DNA of 64,000 bases from a virus: positions 64,001 through 128,000 of the IMG/VR virus record IMGVR_UViG_3300035210_000189; one strand, given 5' to 3'. Shown piece after piece: positions 139 through 44,683 of this stretch (positions within the stretch are counted from its first letter, which is position 1; each line of letters starts with the position of its first letter). Under the pieces are notes generated by a model. It ran no database searches and was not told where the DNA came from. It was given only the letters and a program-made list of their open reading frames with translations. Both the position numbers and the translations under genes were made by a program.

Positions 139-1293
139 ATGAACCTTTTTCCAAAAATCGAACACATCAACGATATTTTGCCAGCTTTGGCAGGTAAAAC
201 CTATATCGGTGTGAACAAGCAATCTAACGGTGCAACCGTTCTTTGCTACAACATCAGCAACGGTGAATCTTTTGCTACGCCTTTTGAAAAAGAATGCCGT
301 GGTATCACCTTTGACCGTGATGGTAAAATTGTAAACCGTCCTTTGCACAAGTTTTTCAACTTGGCAGAGCGTGAAGAAGTATTGCCACACAACATTAACT
401 GGGATGATGTGGTTGCTGTCTTCGATAAGATGGATGGTTCTATGATTACTGCTGGTGTGTTTCATGGCGACGTATTTGTAAAATCCAAAAAGTCTTTTGA
501 ATCAGATGTGGCTGTGTCGGCTTTGGCTTATGTTAAAGCAAACCATAAATACGAAGATTTCATTAAGCATTGTGCATCCTTGGATTTGACACCAATCTTT
601 GAATACACTTCGCCAAACAACCGTATCGTGTTGCGTTACGATGAAGAAAAAATGACGTTGTTGCATGTGCGTCATACTATCAATGGTAATTATTTCATGC
701 CAGATGAAGTGGCTGCATTGGCTAAGTCGTTTGATATTCCAGTGAACGCTCCATTGTTTGGTAAAGGTTTTGACTTGAAAGCATTGTTGCATTCATTGGA
801 CACTGTTGAAGGGATTGAAGGTTACGTTATTCAGTTCTCAAATGGTAACATGGTTAAGGTAAAAACAACTTGGTATGTTAACTTACACCACGCAGTAACA
901 TTCGTGCGTATTCGTGACATTGCTCGCTTGGTTTTATCCGAGAAAATTGACGACTACATTGCATTTGTTGCATTACATGCAAAAGACGCTGATTTGACTC
1001 AAATCCATTACATCAATGACACGATTAAAGCAGAAATTGAAGGAATCAAGAAAGACGTTGCTGATATTTTGGCTCAACATGAAGGTGTTGATTTCAAAAC
1101 CTTGGCAACCACCTACTTGGGTCATCCATATTTCTCTTTCATCATGACTACCGCTCGCGGTAAAGAAGTTGATTACTTGGATTACTACGAACGTAATCGT
1201 TTGAAAGAAGTCTGGTCTTTGGAGCAAGTTGACTTGGGCAACTTCACAGGGACTGATGATTCTGATGATGAAGTTCCAGTAGATGAAGATTAA
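139..1293 (+). CDS. RNA ligase, T4 Rnl1-like
   Basis: Nucleotidyltransferase motif I KMDGS; ECRGITF and LHKFFN N-terminal Rnl1 motifs; FEYTSPNNRIV; EGYVI; VKVKT; GGAG RBS. Confidence 0.9.
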   Translation: MNLFPKIEHINDILPALAGKTYIGVNKQSNGATVLCYNISNGESFATPFEKECRGITFDRDGKIVNRPLHKFFNLAEREEVLPHNINWDDVVAVFDKMDGSMITAGVFHGDVFVKSKKSFESDVAVSALAYVKANHKYEDFIKHCASLDLTPIFEYTSPNNRIVLRYDEEKMTLLHVRHTINGNYFMPDEVAALAKSFDIPVNAPLFGKGFDLKALLHSLDTVEGIEGYVIQFSNGNMVKVKTTWYVNLHHAVTFVRIRDIARLVLSEKIDDYIAFVALHAKDADLTQIHYINDTIKAEIEGIKKDVADILAQHEGVDFKTLATTYLGHPYFSFIMTTARGKEVDYLDYYERNRLKEVWSLEQVDLGNFTGTDDSDDEVPVDED

Positions 1294-11582: not shown

Positions 11583-12260
11583 ATGAACGCAGCTACCCAA
11601 CATTTCAGTGGTGTTTTTACTAAAATTAAGACACTCATCAGCCAATATAAACTTTCAGAGTTTATTAATTCTTCTTTGCTGTTTTCTTCGCTCTGTTCGT
11701 TGGCTATGCTGTATGCCTTCTCTTATGGATTGCAGACAGAAAGCCGTGAATTGATTGTCTTTACCCCGCTTAATGCTATTAGTTCATTCCTTTTATTTTG
11801 TTTTGGCTTATGGATGACAAAAAGCTCTAAATTACCAGATCGCTATTATAGCTGGTCCTCGGCCATTAACTATCTCGGGGTGCTGTTACTTATTCCTTAC
11901 CTTGTCTTTATTGACAATCGGTCAATGGTAGCATTGGCAATGTCGTTTTTCTTTATCAATATTTTTAACTTGTGTATCCTGTTACACCTATTAAATTTCC
12001 GTTCTAATTACCACCATGACTGGAATGCCTTGCGTAAACTGACATCATTGAAATCTGGTTTCAATTTCAAACTGTCGATGGGAGTAAAATTACATGTGTT
12101 GATGCCTGTGGGTTTAGTGACAATCTATTTTGATAAAATTTGTGTGAATGGTGTTGATTATGATTTGTATGATCTAACCAAATACTTTGAAACCCATGAT
12201 TTAGATTTAAATACCGCCACTGATGATGATTTTAAACTGTTTGAAATGATCAGATATTAA
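11583..12260 (+). CDS. Membrane protein, family D (1/3)
   Basis: About 4 TM segments plus soluble C-terminal domain; ends LFEMIRY. Confidence 0.75.
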   Translation: MNAATQHFSGVFTKIKTLISQYKLSEFINSSLLFSSLCSLAMLYAFSYGLQTESRELIVFTPLNAISSFLLFCFGLWMTKSSKLPDRYYSWSSAINYLGVLLLIPYLVFIDNRSMVALAMSFFFINIFNLCILLHLLNFRSNYHHDWNALRKLTSLKSGFNFKLSMGVKLHVLMPVGLVTIYFDKICVNGVDYDLYDLTKYFETHDLDLNTATDDDFKLFEMIRY

Positions 12261-12283
12261 TTACGTTAGATAAGGATTGATTT

Positions 12284-12946
12284 ATGAATAAAATTATATT
12301 TTTTTGTCAACGTTTGTTTGTCTCCTATTCTGTGTCTTTGATGGCTATTATTTTTTCTGTTTTTTTTGGAATAGCTAACTCAGGTATTGTGGAATCAGAT
12401 ATTATTGGCATTGTAGTAACAGGTTGTTTAGCCTTGGTTATGCTTGTTATGTGTGCGGATGGCCGTGCAGAAATTAAAAATATTACTTACTATTCAAAAG
12501 TGGCAAGTTTAAACTATCTATTCAGCTTTTTATTGATTGTTTATACTATTTTAATGAAAGGATTTGATATACATTTCATGTTGGCACCTGCTCTATTGTT
12601 AAGTCTTTTTAATATATATCTGTGTTTTAAAATGCAATCAAATCTTTCTAATCTGGTCGTGGTTCCTGAACTTCAAAAACTTCGTAAATTGCTACCTGAT
12701 GTCAAACACTTCAAGATTGATTATGATTACACTTTTTTGAAACCTACTGATGCTCCGAGGTATGAGCCAAGATCTTACAAAATTATCACGACACTTGGAA
12801 ATCTATCTTTTGATGGAAGATTCTTTTATCTTAATGGACATACTTATGAGATAGCTAACTTTATTTCGGGTTATAGATCGTGTAATATTAACATTGACAC
12901 ATCAACACCAGAAGATGCTACCGTTATGCAAATGTTTTGTATATAA
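12284..12946 (+). CDS. Membrane protein, family D (2/3)
   Basis: YYS..A..NYL, FN, LRKL motifs; ends VMQMFCI. Confidence 0.75.
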   Translation: MNKIIFFCQRLFVSYSVSLMAIIFSVFFGIANSGIVESDIIGIVVTGCLALVMLVMCADGRAEIKNITYYSKVASLNYLFSFLLIVYTILMKGFDIHFMLAPALLLSLFNIYLCFKMQSNLSNLVVVPELQKLRKLLPDVKHFKIDYDYTFLKPTDAPRYEPRSYKIITTLGNLSFDGRFFYLNGHTYEIANFISGYRSCNINIDTSTPEDATVMQMFCI

Positions 12947-13035
12947 AAGCAATGGTATAAGCCATTCTGATCTATCATGTTTACTCGGAATAGTGTATAA
13001 TCAGCTTCTAATTTAAATAATGCCATGAGGTATTT

Positions 13036-13698
13036 ATGAAATCATTAAACATGTTACGTCAGTTAAATTTAGCATCCTTCATCATGTTGGCGTGTGCTAT
13101 TTATTGTGCTGTTGCTTCATTTCATTACGTGACAGTAAATGGAAATAAGTTTTTCTTTGCTGTCGGTGGTGTTACTTCGGTGATGTTGGGTTTTGCGGTT
13201 GTCTTGAATGTATTGAATATTTTCATGATGCCGCGAGATAAATTCTATTCCAATGGGGCATGGACATTCCATTTACTCAGTGTACTGCTGTTGGTTACAT
13301 CGTTTACAGCCCCCGAAGAATATTTGATCAACTTTATCAGTATCGCTGTGCTTTCCATTTTCAATATTGTTGTTTTTTTAAGCACGATGTCATTTCGTTC
13401 TCGTGAATCGACGTTGATCAATCAACTTCGAAAACTATTTCCTGATGAAAAGTTCTTTAATTTCGATATTGATTTCAAATTTAAGAAAGACTTCATTGAA
13501 GACGCTGTTGATACTTACATTTCTGGCATTCGTCTCTTGACGCCCTTTGGCAAAGTAGTGTTTGTCGGTGATGGTTTTTATTTCGATGATCGTTTTCATG
13601 AAGCTAAACGCTTTGTGACTAGCCTAAAAGATTGTGGTTTTAAGTTTAATAAAGCAACACCTGACGAAATGAAAGTTGTTGAAATGCACGTTTATTAA
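13036..13698 (+). CDS. Membrane protein, family D (3/3)
   Basis: LRKLFPD, TPFG; ends VVEMHVY. Confidence 0.75.
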   Translation: MKSLNMLRQLNLASFIMLACAIYCAVASFHYVTVNGNKFFFAVGGVTSVMLGFAVVLNVLNIFMMPRDKFYSNGAWTFHLLSVLLLVTSFTAPEEYLINFISIAVLSIFNIVVFLSTMSFRSRESTLINQLRKLFPDEKFFNFDIDFKFKKDFIEDAVDTYISGIRLLTPFGKVVFVGDGFYFDDRFHEAKRFVTSLKDCGFKFNKATPDEMKVVEMHVY

Positions 13699-16765: not shown

Positions 16766-17338
16766 ATGATTAAAAAATTAAAATATATGGCGTTATTGGG
16801 TTTATTCTCTGGCGTTTGCTTTGCTCAACAACCCAACAAGATTGAGCAGCAAGACATTAAAGCGATTGGTGATTTTCTACGAGGACAATCAGGATTACGA
16901 ATAGGATCGATTATTAATACCAGCACGTATGAACCGCTTAACAAGCTAGGTTATTTCACACTCAAACCAGCAAAAGAAATATATCCTTTTACTCGCTATG
17001 AAATAGGTGTTACACCAATTAGCCAACAGCTCTACACCTTTTATCTGGAAGGTCAATCGCCTAATTGCCAGAAAGACAACATAACCTTCAGAACCTTTAT
17101 TGATAAACGTTTTGGTCACCCTGTTCAAACGCATTTCAATCCAGCCGATGAATCAAATATGGTTTTTATGTTGCAAGAACCCACAGCCGGTACCAATAAT
17201 TTACTCATGTATTCCTGTGATACAGTGACTAATAAGACGTTCATCTATTATTATCGAGAACACTTAACCAATGTATTTAACAATGAAGTCACTGCTTGGT
17301 ATGCTAAGCAATTGGATGACACAACAGCTTCTAAATAA
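16766..17338 (+). CDS. Secreted hypothetical protein
   Basis: Signal peptide ending CFA|QQ; AGGAG RBS. Confidence 0.7.
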   Translation: MIKKLKYMALLGLFSGVCFAQQPNKIEQQDIKAIGDFLRGQSGLRIGSIINTSTYEPLNKLGYFTLKPAKEIYPFTRYEIGVTPISQQLYTFYLEGQSPNCQKDNITFRTFIDKRFGHPVQTHFNPADESNMVFMLQEPTAGTNNLLMYSCDTVTNKTFIYYYREHLTNVFNNEVTAWYAKQLDDTTASK

Positions 17339-17341
17339 TTG

Positions 17342-17370
17342 TTGACTTTCAATGGCTCTTTTGTTAATAT
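17342..17370 (+). promoter_or_regulatory. sigma70-like promoter of tRNA-like RNA
   Basis: TTGACT-17 nt-TAATAT. Confidence 0.7.
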
Positions 17371-17375
17371 GGAAC

Positions 17376-17471
17376 CACTAGGTAGAGATGACGATGCAAT
17401 CGCCTCACAGCAAGGTTAGATCATCTTTAGGTTCAGCGGCGATTGGCGGGGTTCGAAGCCCCGATCTAGTG
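17376..17471 (+). ncRNA. Stand-alone tRNA-like RNA (acceptor stem and T arm, no canonical D/anticodon arms)
   Basis: cactaggt/atctagtg terminal stem, caatcgcc/ggcgattg stem, cgggg-TTCGAAG-ccccg T arm; own promoter and terminator. Confidence 0.75.
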
Positions 17472-17473
17472 TG

Positions 17474-17503
17474 AGGCTTACGATTATGTAAGCCTTTTTT
17501 TTT
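17474..17503 (+). terminator. Intrinsic terminator
   Basis: aggcttac-gattat-gtaagcct plus T-run. Confidence 0.8.
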
Positions 17504-27970: not shown

Positions 27971-28654
27971 ATGTTTAAATTAATGGCGGTTCTTTTCTCG
28001 GGATTATTCCTTACTGGTTGTGCCGTTCATGACATCGGTAAAACATTGGACAGAAAGAAAGATAATTATTCCATTCTTGAAACTGTTCATGAGCCACAAA
28101 ACAATTTGAACTATGTCCGGTTTGAAAGTCGTAAAACAGATGGAGCAGACACTTACTTTACTGTTTCCAGTGGTGTTCAATGGAACGATGACTATGTGGT
28201 CGCTTTAAAAACCACTGAAAGTGAGAATGATAAGTTTGCCTGTCTTGATGCATGTGGGGTTGTCTTTATCAAGAAACATAAAACAGCACCCGTGCCTGAA
28301 TGGCGTCACCGTGTCAGTAACGAGCCTGTTATTTTGTTAGGGGCTTCTGATGAAGTTGACGAAACGTTTGTTTTTAAATCAATGGACATTGATGTTTCTG
28401 CTATCAGTGCTGACATTACACCTTATCCAGTTTATGCAGTTCCTACAACGATTGTTGAGAATAATGCAGAAGGTGGCCCTGTTTATGGGAATGACGGTAA
28501 AGTGATTGGTATCATTTCTGGCTTCGTCAACACAGTGGATGATACAGGTGAACGATTAACCTATCTGGATGGTTTTGATTCTGGTTATTTTGCTTTGTAT
28601 ATTCCATACAGTGAATTGATTAGAGCATGGGATTTAGTCAAACCTGTTAAATGA
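27971..28654 (+). CDS. Trypsin-fold lipoprotein, predicted inactive
   Basis: Lipobox LTGC; QWNDDYVV and GGPVY shared with 16037; catalytic His and Ser replaced (VALKT, NAEGGP). Confidence 0.75.
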   Translation: MFKLMAVLFSGLFLTGCAVHDIGKTLDRKKDNYSILETVHEPQNNLNYVRFESRKTDGADTYFTVSSGVQWNDDYVVALKTTESENDKFACLDACGVVFIKKHKTAPVPEWRHRVSNEPVILLGASDEVDETFVFKSMDIDVSAISADITPYPVYAVPTTIVENNAEGGPVYGNDGKVIGIISGFVNTVDDTGERLTYLDGFDSGYFALYIPYSELIRAWDLVKPVK

Positions 28655-33035: not shown

Positions 33036-33914
33036 CTAAGCTCCTTTTATTATTTGATGACGACACAATTGTTTCGAAATTGAATCATAATTCATAACCA
33101 TTATTCCAATCACCAACATTGGAACACATAATAGTTGACCTGTTGTTAACCAACCAAAAGCAATATAGCCTAGATTGGCATCGGGTTCTCTAACAAATTC
33201 GACTGAAAATCTGAATATCGCATACATGATCATGAACAATCCACAAATAGATCCTTTTGTTCTTTCTTTCATCGAATACGCTTTCAATATGAAAAATAAA
33301 ACAACACCTTCTAATATGGCTTCATAAATTTGTGATGGATGTCTTGGTAATGATCCTGCATTTTGAAATACTATTCCAAATGGCCCATCTGTTACCTTCC
33401 CCCATAGTTCTCCATTGATAAAGTTGCCTAATCGACCTTCTGCTAAACCTATGGGAGCTGTTAATGCTATAATGTCCATACATTTCAAAAACTGTATTTT
33501 ATATTTTCTAGCATAGATCCAGACGCCAATGACTAATCCTATTAATCCACCATGAAAAGAGACGCCTCCTTTCCATAAGGCAATAATGTCGATAGGATGA
33601 CTGAAATAATGTTCCAGTGGATAGCCTTGGTATATGATGAGATACAAAAGCCTTGCACCAATGATCATACCAAATACGGCATATAGAATAAGCATGTAAG
33701 CATCGTCTTCTTTTAATTTATTGTCTATTTTTGATATATCTTTGACCATTTTTATTCTAGCAATCACGATGGTTGTTAGGAACAAAAGCCCATACCACTT
33801 GATACTAACGATTTTAAGATCAATAGCCACTGGATTAATTGGATAGTTTTTTATAATCAATGTTAAAAATATTCCGAATAGAAATAATATTGCTATATTT
33901 GTTTTTGTTATCAT
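33036..33914 (-). CDS. lgt: Prolipoprotein diacylglyceryl transferase
   Basis: WYGL, GARL.Y, GGVSFHGG, GRLGNFINGELWG, HPSQIYE, FRF.VEF.REPD. Confidence 0.95.
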   Translation of the reverse strand: MITKTNIAILFLFGIFLTLIIKNYPINPVAIDLKIVSIKWYGLLFLTTIVIARIKMVKDISKIDNKLKEDDAYMLILYAVFGMIIGARLLYLIIYQGYPLEHYFSHPIDIIALWKGGVSFHGGLIGLVIGVWIYARKYKIQFLKCMDIIALTAPIGLAEGRLGNFINGELWGKVTDGPFGIVFQNAGSLPRHPSQIYEAILEGVVLFFILKAYSMKERTKGSICGLFMIMYAIFRFSVEFVREPDANLGYIAFGWLTTGQLLCVPMLVIGIMVMNYDSISKQLCRHQIIKGA

Positions 33915-36314: not shown

Positions 36315-37531
36315 ATGTTGTTGAAAGAATCCCCCTTCCTTCAGGTAGGGGATGAATTTCAACCATGCTCTTGACTTTTGTTATTTTCTCAATATAATCA
36401 ACCACATGATTAAAACATTCCAATATAAAATTAAAACTGGGAAGATTAATTCTTCCGATTGTCGCTGGCTTTCTCAAAAAGCCAGTTCCATTAACTATAT
36501 CTGGAATTATTGCAACGATGCCCAAAAGCATAAACTTAAATGGGACAGTCAAAAAAAGTGGTTAAGTGGTTTTGATCTTAGTTCCATGTGCGGTGGTGTA
36601 TCAAAAGAAATTGGCTTACATTCACAAACAGTCCAAGCTGTTTGTGAAGAGTATGCCAATAAACGCAAAGCAAAGAAAAAAGCCTATTTACGTTATCGTA
36701 GTTATAAAAAATCACTGGGTTGGATTCCTTTTAAAACAACGGGAATTAAGTTTGATCCTGATAATCAATCTTTTACCTATCAAAAACGTGAGTTTAAAGT
36801 GTGGTATAGGCGTGAGATTCCGGCTGATACCAAGATTAAAAGTGGTAGTTTCTGCCAAGATAATTTAGGCCATTGGTACATCAACATCGTTGTTGATATA
36901 CCCGAGGTTAAACGCACTCAAAAACCGACTGCAGAAGTGGGTATTGACCTTGGCTTAAAAGATTTAGCTGTTCTTTCGGATGGGAAAGTCATTCCTATCT
37001 TCAAATACTATCGAAAAAACGAGAAAAGACTTGGATTGGCTCAACGAGCCAATAAGAAAGGTCAAGTTAAAAAAATACACAAGAAAATTGCTAATTCACG
37101 AAAAGATTCAGCGTTTAAAATCGCTAATGATCTTGTGAAAAATTACGCTTTAATTGTGGTAGGAAACGTGAGTCCATCAAAACTTGGTAAAACCAAAATG
37201 GCTAAGTCAGTTTATGATGCAGGTTGGACACTTCTAAAAAAGCAGGTTGAGTATTTAGCGATTACGCACCAATCCGTATTTTTAGAAGTGAATGAAAGTT
37301 TTACAACCCAAGCTTGTTCGTCTTGTGGAAATAGGACGGGGCCGAAAGGCTTAAAAGATCTTGGAATAAGAGAATGGAAATGCCCAGTATGCAATACTGT
37401 TCATGACAGAGATGTAAACTCTGCGAAAAACATTCTCCGTATCGGACATGATACGCTAGAAGTAGGAATCCCCTTCCTTACCGCCTAACGGCGGCAAACA
37501 TTTTTAATGTTTGAGGTGGGGAGGATGTCAA
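36315..37531 (+). mobile_element. tnpB-only IS200/IS605-family element (IS1341-like)
   Basis: Matching subterminal hairpins GAATCCCC..TTCCTT..AGGT.GGG; right end finishes in TCAA; no tnpA; left junction uncertain (36315-36327). Confidence 0.85.
36406..37488 (+). CDS. tnpB: RNA-guided endonuclease TnpB
   Basis: GIDLGLK (RuvC-I), CSSC/CPVC zinc finger, HDRDVNSAKNI (RuvC-III); promoter TTGACT-16 nt-TATAAT just upstream. Confidence 0.93.
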   Translation: MIKTFQYKIKTGKINSSDCRWLSQKASSINYIWNYCNDAQKHKLKWDSQKKWLSGFDLSSMCGGVSKEIGLHSQTVQAVCEEYANKRKAKKKAYLRYRSYKKSLGWIPFKTTGIKFDPDNQSFTYQKREFKVWYRREIPADTKIKSGSFCQDNLGHWYINIVVDIPEVKRTQKPTAEVGIDLGLKDLAVLSDGKVIPIFKYYRKNEKRLGLAQRANKKGQVKKIHKKIANSRKDSAFKIANDLVKNYALIVVGNVSPSKLGKTKMAKSVYDAGWTLLKKQVEYLAITHQSVFLEVNESFTTQACSSCGNRTGPKGLKDLGIREWKCPVCNTVHDRDVNSAKNILRIGHDTLEVGIPFLTA

Positions 37532-43684: not shown

Positions 43685-44683
43685 ATGCATAGCTTCCATT
43701 CTCATCACTCTCACGACGAACATGCCCACGACACGGTGAACGTGGCAAACCATGATCATTGTCCTAGTCTCCACATTCATGAAATCAATAAGCAAAAATC
43801 CAGTGGCCGCAAAAAGCTTGCCATTATTATGGGTATTACCTTTGCTTTTGCGATTGTTGAAATGATTGGTGGTTGGTTTTCTGGTTCATTGGCTTTGATT
43901 TCTGACGCATTCCATATGTTAACCGACTCATCTTCACTGATGTTGGCTTTAATTATGGCAATTCTTGCCCAAAAGCCCGCCGATGATAGATATTCCTATG
44001 GACATGGACGTTGGGAGATTATCGGGGCATTACTGAATGGTTTATTCATGATTGCAGTGATTGTCTTCTTGGTCTATGAAGGCATTGAACGTATTATTAA
44101 TCCAAGGCCCGTTGAATCGACTACCATTATTTGGATTGCTTCCATTGGATTGGCTATCAATATCTTTGCAGCATGGTTATTGCACTCACACAGCCACTCA
44201 TTAAACACCCGAGGTGCCTTTCTCCATGTGCTTGGTGATTTACTGGGTAGCGTTGCCGCTATTGCTGCAGGTGTAATTATTTATTTCACTGGCATGACCG
44301 TCTTTGACCCGATTATTTCTATTGTGGTTGCTCTTATTTTGGTTGTTCCTACTTACAACTTGTTGAAACAAACAGCCAGAATTATCTTAGAAGGCGTGCC
44401 AGAACATATTGATTATGTCGAAGTTGGTAAAAATTTGAATGAAATTCCTAATGTTATCTCTGTCCATGACCTCCATATTTGGTCTATGACTTCTGAACAT
44501 ATCTCATTGTCTGCACACGTTGAAATTTCTAGCATGAATGAATGGGAAACAGTATTAGCTGATATTCAATTGATGTTATCTGAGAAGTTTCAGATTAATC
44601 ACATAACCTTACAACCCGAAGTACATAAAGAAGATTTAGAAAACAATCATGATGAAGTTGACGAACATCATCACGCTCATTAA
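43685..44683 (+). CDS. CDF-family Zn/Co/Cd efflux transporter (ZitB/CzcD-like)
   Basis: SLALISDAFHMLTD, YSYG.GR.E, FLHVLGD, VHDLHIW, HITLQPE; His-rich termini. Confidence 0.95.
   Translation: MHSFHSHHSHDEHAHDTVNVANHDHCPSLHIHEINKQKSSGRKKLAIIMGITFAFAIVEMIGGWFSGSLALISDAFHMLTDSSSLMLALIMAILAQKPADDRYSYGHGRWEIIGALLNGLFMIAVIVFLVYEGIERIINPRPVESTTIIWIASIGLAINIFAAWLLHSHSHSLNTRGAFLHVLGDLLGSVAAIAAGVIIYFTGMTVFDPIISIVVALILVVPTYNLLKQTARIILEGVPEHIDYVEVGKNLNEIPNVISVHDLHIWSMTSEHISLSAHVEISSMNEWETVLADIQLMLSEKFQINHITLQPEVHKEDLENNHDEVDEHHHAH

Follow-up and report, generated by a model that had tools for sequence, protein, structure and literature searches.

The tRNA regions of phage genomes have been known since the work on T4 and T5 to hold stable RNAs that lack an explanation. 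The locus at positions 17342-17503 of the window, the 64,000-nt stretch of viral DNA analyzed here, raises the question of what kind of RNA is encoded by a short transcription unit that gene finders overlook entirely. The original prediction described a complete unit of promoter, RNA and terminator, and all of its elements are indeed present, with promoter, RNA and terminator conserved in relatives. Neither ARAGORN nor Rfam called anything at the locus, even at E values up to 10, and the search against the tmRNA and YrlA models of Rfam, proposed with that prediction, gave no match. The features of the unit, as they stand after the comparative analysis described below, are as follows.

17342-17370, plus strand: σ70-type promoter with a -35 element (17342-17347), a 17-nt spacer and a TG-extended -10 element (17365-17370); hexamers kept and spacer divergent in seven close members and L286
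17377-17383, plus strand: acceptor stem, 5' strand, positions 1-7; 6-nt gap from the -10 element in 7/7 close members; covariation
17384-17391, plus strand: 5' strand of the pseudoknot, located where a D stem or the 5' part of the tmRNA D loop would be; two-sided changes
17392-17397, plus strand: single-stranded linker, with T17395 and G17396 at the positions of tmRNA C18 and G19; Y-G in 11 of 12 lineages
17398-17404, plus strand: 5' strand of the invariant 7-bp helix, which takes the position of tmRNA helix 2a or the anticodon stem; identical in 16/16
17405-17420, plus strand: conserved loop containing CAG-N-AA-GG, a motif that resembles a D loop or a T loop; 10 of 12 lineages
17421-17428, plus strand: pseudoknot, 3' strand, pairing with 17384-17391
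17429-17437, plus strand: conserved linker GG-U-NN-AGC
17438-17444, plus strand: invariant 7-bp helix, 3' strand; identical in 16/16
17445-17446, plus strand: 2-nt connector at tmRNA G333-A334; GG in the window, GA in most lineages
17447-17463, plus strand: canonical T arm, 5 bp and a 7-nt loop; covariation, with the last two loop positions varying as in tRNA
17464-17471, plus strand: 3' strand of the acceptor stem, followed by discriminator G73; U3-A70; CCA not encoded
17473-17503, plus strand: intrinsic terminator, 1 nt past the discriminator, with a hairpin (17473-17496) and a T run; compensating changes in close members

The seven close members that preserve the 6-nt gap also retain both promoter hexamers. 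The usual spacing of σ70 promoters puts the start at A17377, and thus transcription is predicted to begin at base 1 of the acceptor stem, with no leader. The RNA of the window copy is ∼95-96 nt in length, and the lack of an encoded CCA at its 3' end, remarked upon at the outset, is evident from the sequence. Taken alone, a match to the two hexamers is at chance level, with 24 sites versus 18.8 ± 4.6 in shuffled sequences, and the z-score of the fold is modest (-2.15 for the RNA and -3.13 with the terminator included). Given a promoter at chance level and a fold of only moderate stability, the case for an RNA gene rests on its homologs.

Nine related loci carry the RNA in the same place, upstream of a gene encoding a 208-aa membrane protein. 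Among the close members, identity amounts to 84-92% in the RNA as against 63-69% in the downstream gene. Pattern scans of IMG/VR, with patterns taken from different parts of the RNA, led to ten more lineages in unrelated phage records, the complete ones of which measure 150-460 kb. Five of these ten distant carriers have a terminase match, and the RNA lies mostly within tRNA clusters. The inner helix and the T loop were contained in one search pattern and the loops in another, and each half of the RNA was verified in those members to which the other pattern had led; a member that deviates in both would escape. A covariance model built from five of these lineages recovered the held-out members with 41-69 bits versus ≤29 bits for tRNAs, and with the final model there is one copy per record at 60-89 bits, anything else, including ordinary tRNAs, scoring ≤34 bits. 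It is thus nearly certain, on comparative grounds, that this is a real conserved RNA family. The family is uncatalogued in that no description of it exists in Rfam 15 or in the literature searched, the candidate list of Fremin et al. lying outside this comparison.

When the RNA was compared by BLAST with the phages and plasmids in GenBank, only chance matches or matches to tRNA T arms were returned; a metagenome scan with a pattern that was too short gave chance matches only, and GTDB genomes contained no match to a long exact pattern. With the family model nothing rose above the tRNA level in 14 bacterial genomes and 11 GenBank phage records, nothing was found in 151 sampled genomes of one order (27 candidates per genome scored, in a search that had no positive control), and the family is absent from eight other GenBank jumbo phages. 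Two further observations concern the assembled sequence at the locus itself. A public contig in run X12 has 1425 extra letters at window position 17330/17331, immediately before the promoter, which leave the RNA unit intact; in run X10 the RNA locus is present in two different versions.

These relatives bear upon two simple explanations. In the close clade the RNA always occupies the same place ahead of the 208-aa membrane-protein gene, which could indicate a cis-acting element or a processing signal for that gene, but the conserved terminator follows immediately, and in the 11 other lineages the neighbors are tRNAs or unrelated genes; such a role is very improbable. That the RNA is an ordinary tRNA in decay, which its T arm, its 7-bp acceptor stem and the imperfect stems of L362 and L347 might bring to mind, and which the original prediction named as the outcome that homologs could reveal, is refuted by the comparative data: the covariation is strong, the pseudoknot is rebuilt in every lineage, the core is invariant across unrelated phages, the RNA is more conserved than the adjacent gene, and its scores are clearly separated from those of tRNAs. 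Hardly any weight can be given to it.

The alignment also led to some redrawing of the fold. The terminal stem had been drawn with 8 bp (17376-17383/17464-17471). The stem is present, but its outermost pair, C17376-G17471, is broken in L318, L326 and L328 and lies upstream of the predicted start, which leaves a normal 7-bp acceptor stem followed by a discriminator G. A pair between positions -1 and 73 can form in 13/16 members versus 48/103 ordinary tRNAs, position -1 being probably untranscribed in the window copy. The inner stem had likewise been given 8 bp (17397-17404/17438-17445) closing a loop of 33 nt; it exists, but its outer pair, C17397-G17445, is not conserved, and the helix is therefore one of 7 bp. 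The T arm is as perfect as described. Across 16 sequences two-sided changes occur at all seven acceptor pairs and at four of the five T-stem pairs, in an alignment that was fitted to the covariance model, such that the count leans in favor of the model.

The proposed pseudoknot between the D-like segment and the loop is real, though shorter than the 9 bp suggested, for T17383 belongs to the acceptor stem; it contains at most 8 bp (17384-17391/17421-17428), with a core of six. In close relatives two of the six core pairs covary and all cells of the comparison pair, with two-sided changes from A-U to C-G, from A-U to G-C and from U-A to C-G. In 14/14 sequences the 5' segment forms a stronger duplex with its own loop than it does on average with the loops of other lineages, and in 12 lineages the pseudoknot re-forms from unrelated sequence. 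A nested hairpin placed by RNAfold inside the loop was rejected, as it is not conserved.

The inner helix behaves differently from these stems in that it is letter-for-letter identical in all 16 sequences. It is flanked by the two loop motifs and is extended by a U-C mismatch followed by a covarying Y-R pair. The CAG-N-AA-GG motif also appears in members found by patterns that did not contain it. In L347 (G056) a 5-bp hairpin with an AGAUA loop replaces the conserved loop, which hints that the CAG-N-AA-G motif forms a closed loop of five bases rather than a D loop. The pseudoknot helix begins where a D stem would begin, and the loop preceding its 3' strand reads, in the manner of a D loop, A14-G15...G18-G19...A21. 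The tRNA elbow may thus have been rebuilt with different wiring, a second GG, in the other linker, being an equal candidate.

That acceptor, T and pseudoknot stems preserve only their pairing and the acceptor identity is free to drift, whereas the helix and its two loops are conserved, raises the possibility that the tRNA top half is a stabilizing handle and that the invariant pseudoknotted core is catalytic or binds another specific partner, be it a small ligand or a protein of the phage or the host. No neighboring protein gene is shared between the lineages, however, and rRNA, RNase P RNA and tmRNA gave no match beyond that of shuffled sequences. HDV-like and theta ribozymes are characterized by a nested double pseudoknot, a 3-bp P3, a P1.1 and a catalytic C-N-A junction; the HDV-like pattern fails here because the junction reads C-G-G rather than C-N-A, and a ribozyme of this type was rejected, the possible P3 having 2 bp and being missing in two members, with no Rfam match. 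Nor would such a core explain the tmRNA-type junction bases and the alanine identity described below. An independent function for the core is best regarded as a doubtful, though by no means negligible, possibility. Mimicry of rRNA or RNase P RNA and antisense pairing were rejected as well, since the matches did not exceed those of shuffled sequences; a single 11/15 antisense match to RNase P RNA in 20 tests was taken to be due to chance.

As had been noted from the window alone, the layout of an acceptor stem, a D segment without a stem of its own, a helix and a T arm is that of the tRNA-like domain (TLD) of tmRNA, and this is confirmed by the alignment. The 7-bp acceptor stem is stacked on a canonical T arm, as in tmRNA. 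With positions mapped onto the E. coli tmRNA numbering, the segment connecting the acceptor stem to the inner helix has 12-15 nt (14 in the window copy) with a mode of 13, the length found in E. coli tmRNA. A Y-G dinucleotide occupies positions 18-19 in 11 of 12 lineages, corresponding to C18-G19, and the junction bases G333 and A334 are found in nine and ten of the 12, respectively; all four positions lie outside the patterns by which the distant members were found. The main contacts of tmRNA to SmpB are made by A334 and by G19, the latter stacked on C18, and the change G19C abolishes binding (PMC8363625). Four of the 12 lineages carry the alanine-type G3-U70 pair, compared with 6 of 115 neighboring tRNAs (p about 0.003), always together with G1-C72 and G2-C71, and in three of them with A73. 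The acceptor stems in G054 and G062, moreover, start in the same way as that of the tmRNA encoded by the phage itself.

The departures from tmRNA, standard (RF00023) as well as permuted (RF04321), are equally clear. U17 occurs in none of the 12 lineages and A20 in two, G13-G14 is replaced by variable pairs of the pseudoknot that now ties up the D segment, and the most conserved part of the RNA, the helix with its two loops, has no counterpart in tmRNA. Whereas tmRNA has a tag frame and a ring of pseudoknots, the family has neither, and no conserved frame exists in its 30-41-nt loop. Against the Rfam tmRNA model the best member reaches 27.8 bits, far below the gathering score of 47 and no better than ordinary tRNAs, and in the window there is no match. 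The window copy has a G at position 334. With U3-A70 and G73 it lacks the alanine identity, in agreement with what had been read from its sequence, as had the absence of a tag frame. By the features tested (tag frame, G13-G14, U17 and A20) it is not a tmRNA. Inasmuch as distant members combine the alanine identity with tmRNA junction bases, the family would be a derived TLD, and descent from that domain is somewhat favored; the alternative is an origin from tRNA-Ala with convergent junction bases.

Tag-less RNAs consisting of a TLD alone are known, as in phage DS6A, and they bind SmpB and dampen trans-translation whether chargeable with alanine or not (PMC4131195, PMC11915505). The DS6A RNA (JN698994, about 28478-28560) is likewise a small phage RNA with a 7-bp acceptor stem, a stemless D segment, a helix, a short connector and a T arm, with no tag frame and no encoded CCA. 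It differs in keeping G3-U70 and A73 and an open D loop of the tmRNA type, and it has neither the pseudoknot nor the shared core; with the family model it scores 25 bits, which is the tRNA background, compared with 41-69 bits for held-out members. The designation of the window RNA as a new class holds to the extent that the family is new and absent from Rfam, but it is too strong given these TLD-only RNAs and the TLD-like distant members. By analogy, the family most plausibly works like the DS6A RNA.

The best single mechanism that can be put forward from these comparisons is that of an uncharged TLD decoy of the host SmpB, to which we assign a probability of roughly one in three. The acceptor/T helix, the single-stranded Y18-G19 linker and the G-A connector would form the SmpB-binding surface, which the pseudoknot and the invariant helix would keep rigid and resistant to nucleases. 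Bound to this surface, host SmpB would be less available, and fewer proteins from stalled ribosomes would be tagged and degraded. No SmpB gene was found in the 16 records searched, and any SmpB partner would thus be that of the host. The probability is kept low because part of the SmpB motif has been lost, most of it in the window copy, and because SmpB binding does not account for the invariant helix and its two loops. A tmRNA match of their own is found in 5 of 10 distant carriers versus 20 of 32 controls, which is not an enrichment, and in those five the carrier's tmRNA would compete for the same SmpB.

The 3' end of the RNA bears upon its charging state. All six tRNA or tRNA-like genes of the window record (G000) encode CCA, as do 5/5 of the neighboring tRNA genes in L292 and 15/16 in L337, whereas the family RNA in each of these does not. 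The alanine-type members, by comparison, reside in phages whose tRNA genes mostly lack CCA, one of which encodes an enzyme of the CCA-adding type, or the RNA itself encodes CCA, as in one of the four lineages. This suggests that chargeable and unchargeable states both exist, with the window copy among the latter, and alanine-type members may be charged. Since the window RNA is predicted to start with the stem, carries U3-A70 and G73, and leads into its terminator with no CCA in between, an uncharged decoy is its most likely form.

The absence of CCA even where neighboring tRNA genes encode it would also suit an uncleavable tRNA look-alike that soaks up enzymes of defense or stress, such as anticodon nucleases, tRNA-modifying toxins or sensors of uncharged tRNA. 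The RNA has no anticodon but a perfect T arm, it is located in tRNA clusters, and the element that houses it carries a T4-type RNA ligase. The anticodon nucleases known to date, however, read the anticodon loop, and because that loop is absent they would bind poorly; the invariant core and the bases at the G19 and A334 positions would also be left without a reason. A sponge of this kind is considered unlikely.

The extra domain is found exactly at the place of the anticodon arm or the body of SmpB. The pseudoknot might accordingly fill the space of SmpB and create an all-RNA, codon-independent tRNA in stalled or idle ribosomes, which when alanylated would allow release of the nascent protein untagged and otherwise would block the site. 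The alanine identity of four of 12 lineages, one with CCA, speaks for this, but most lineages, including the window, lack both alanine identity and CCA, and we know of no precedent for such an RNA; it would be a decidedly improbable solution. In a broader version, the RNA would represent a new class of anticodon-less tRNA in which the pseudoknot domain replaces the D and anticodon arms as well as the need for SmpB and the D-loop-like motif comes from elsewhere in the chain, with chargeable and unchargeable versions acting on ribosomes or on a conserved partner outside trans-translation. This, too, we regard as unlikely.

The SmpB decoy lends itself to a decisive experiment. The family offers a small RNA (95 nt) with a pseudoknot supported by covariation and with natural chargeable and unchargeable variants, and owing to these variants and the small, defined fold, a single experiment on binding and tagging would suffice to show whether RNA decoys are used by large phages to adjust ribosome rescue in their hosts. 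If SmpB is not bound, the invariant core points to a conserved RNA-recognition site. Either way, a tRNA-like shape is built without a D stem or an anticodon arm, which is a new design.

The family was compared with other known RNAs as well. An ordinary tRNA was rejected, as the D arm and the anticodon arm with its 7-nt loop are absent and the pseudoknot and a 33-nt loop are found instead. The T4 RNAs rnaC and rnaD (species 1/2) and the T5 RNAs I, III, IV, 1, 2 and 3 are also small stable RNAs of phage tRNA regions, some with a T arm; none of them matches the family model, and there is no shared core. YrlA (RF02553; PMC4201824) is a non-coding RNA that likewise mimics a tRNA and occurs in phages. 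It has a D arm, a T arm and an acceptor stem closed by a loop, and lies beside Ro60, whereas the acceptor stem of the family holds the ends of the RNA and there is no D arm. Ro60/TROVE was found in 2/15 carriers versus 10/32 controls and is thus not enriched.

Additional tRNA-like sequences were encountered. In L404:1612-1728 (G061), the family RNA is directly followed by two tRNA top halves that are interleaved and each have G3-U70 and A73, such that an inner junction resembling that of permuted tmRNA is enclosed by an outer TLD-like stem; the segment scores 40.8 bits against RF04321. Matches to permuted tmRNA above the Rfam threshold occur in 18/32 large phage records (the control set, G006-G050), including those of the cultured phages RsoM2USA and XacN1, among them W01 (MG752970 331728-331923) and W06 (AP018399 37231-37530, 356026-356325). 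Within the window, at 24620-24705 and 24840-24912, lie tRNA-like genes with a T arm and CCA that ARAGORN did not call, the second scoring 34 bits against RF00005. Elsewhere in the record are a tRNA-like gene with a CUA anticodon and CCA (G000:C1:23314-23403) and, at about 12728, an isolated hairpin resembling a T arm.

The record that contains the window is 152 kb in length with a GC content of 34%, comes from peat, and is classified in IMG/VR as a provirus. Besides short genes, most of them unknown, it contains scattered tRNAs, Lgt, a TnpB-like gene and a T4-type RNA ligase. Proteins closely homologous to its own are encoded on contigs measuring 1.54, 1.84 and 1.92 Mb (the G000 relatives L131 and L316), which are densely filled with unknown genes, Terminase_6N had no match in the record or in five relatives including a 437-kb record, and Lgt is about 49% identical to gammaproteobacterial proteins. 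Taken together, these features point to a phage-like island or a megabase element, possibly an extrachromosomal one, the host of which is probably gammaproteobacterial.

Several of its genes deserve mention. The RNA ligase at window 139-1293 is of the T4 Rnl1 type, and G000:C1:48915-50000 is probably a second type of ligase; in L131, a gene of equal length (361 aa) matches PF09414. Three adjacent membrane-type proteins of ∼220 aa, each with a similar Met-x-x-hydrophobic tail, are encoded at window 11583-13698. The TnpB/Cas12f-like gene is located at window 36352-37488, that for prolipoprotein diacylglyceryl transferase at 33036-33914, and a cation-efflux transporter gene at 43685-44683.
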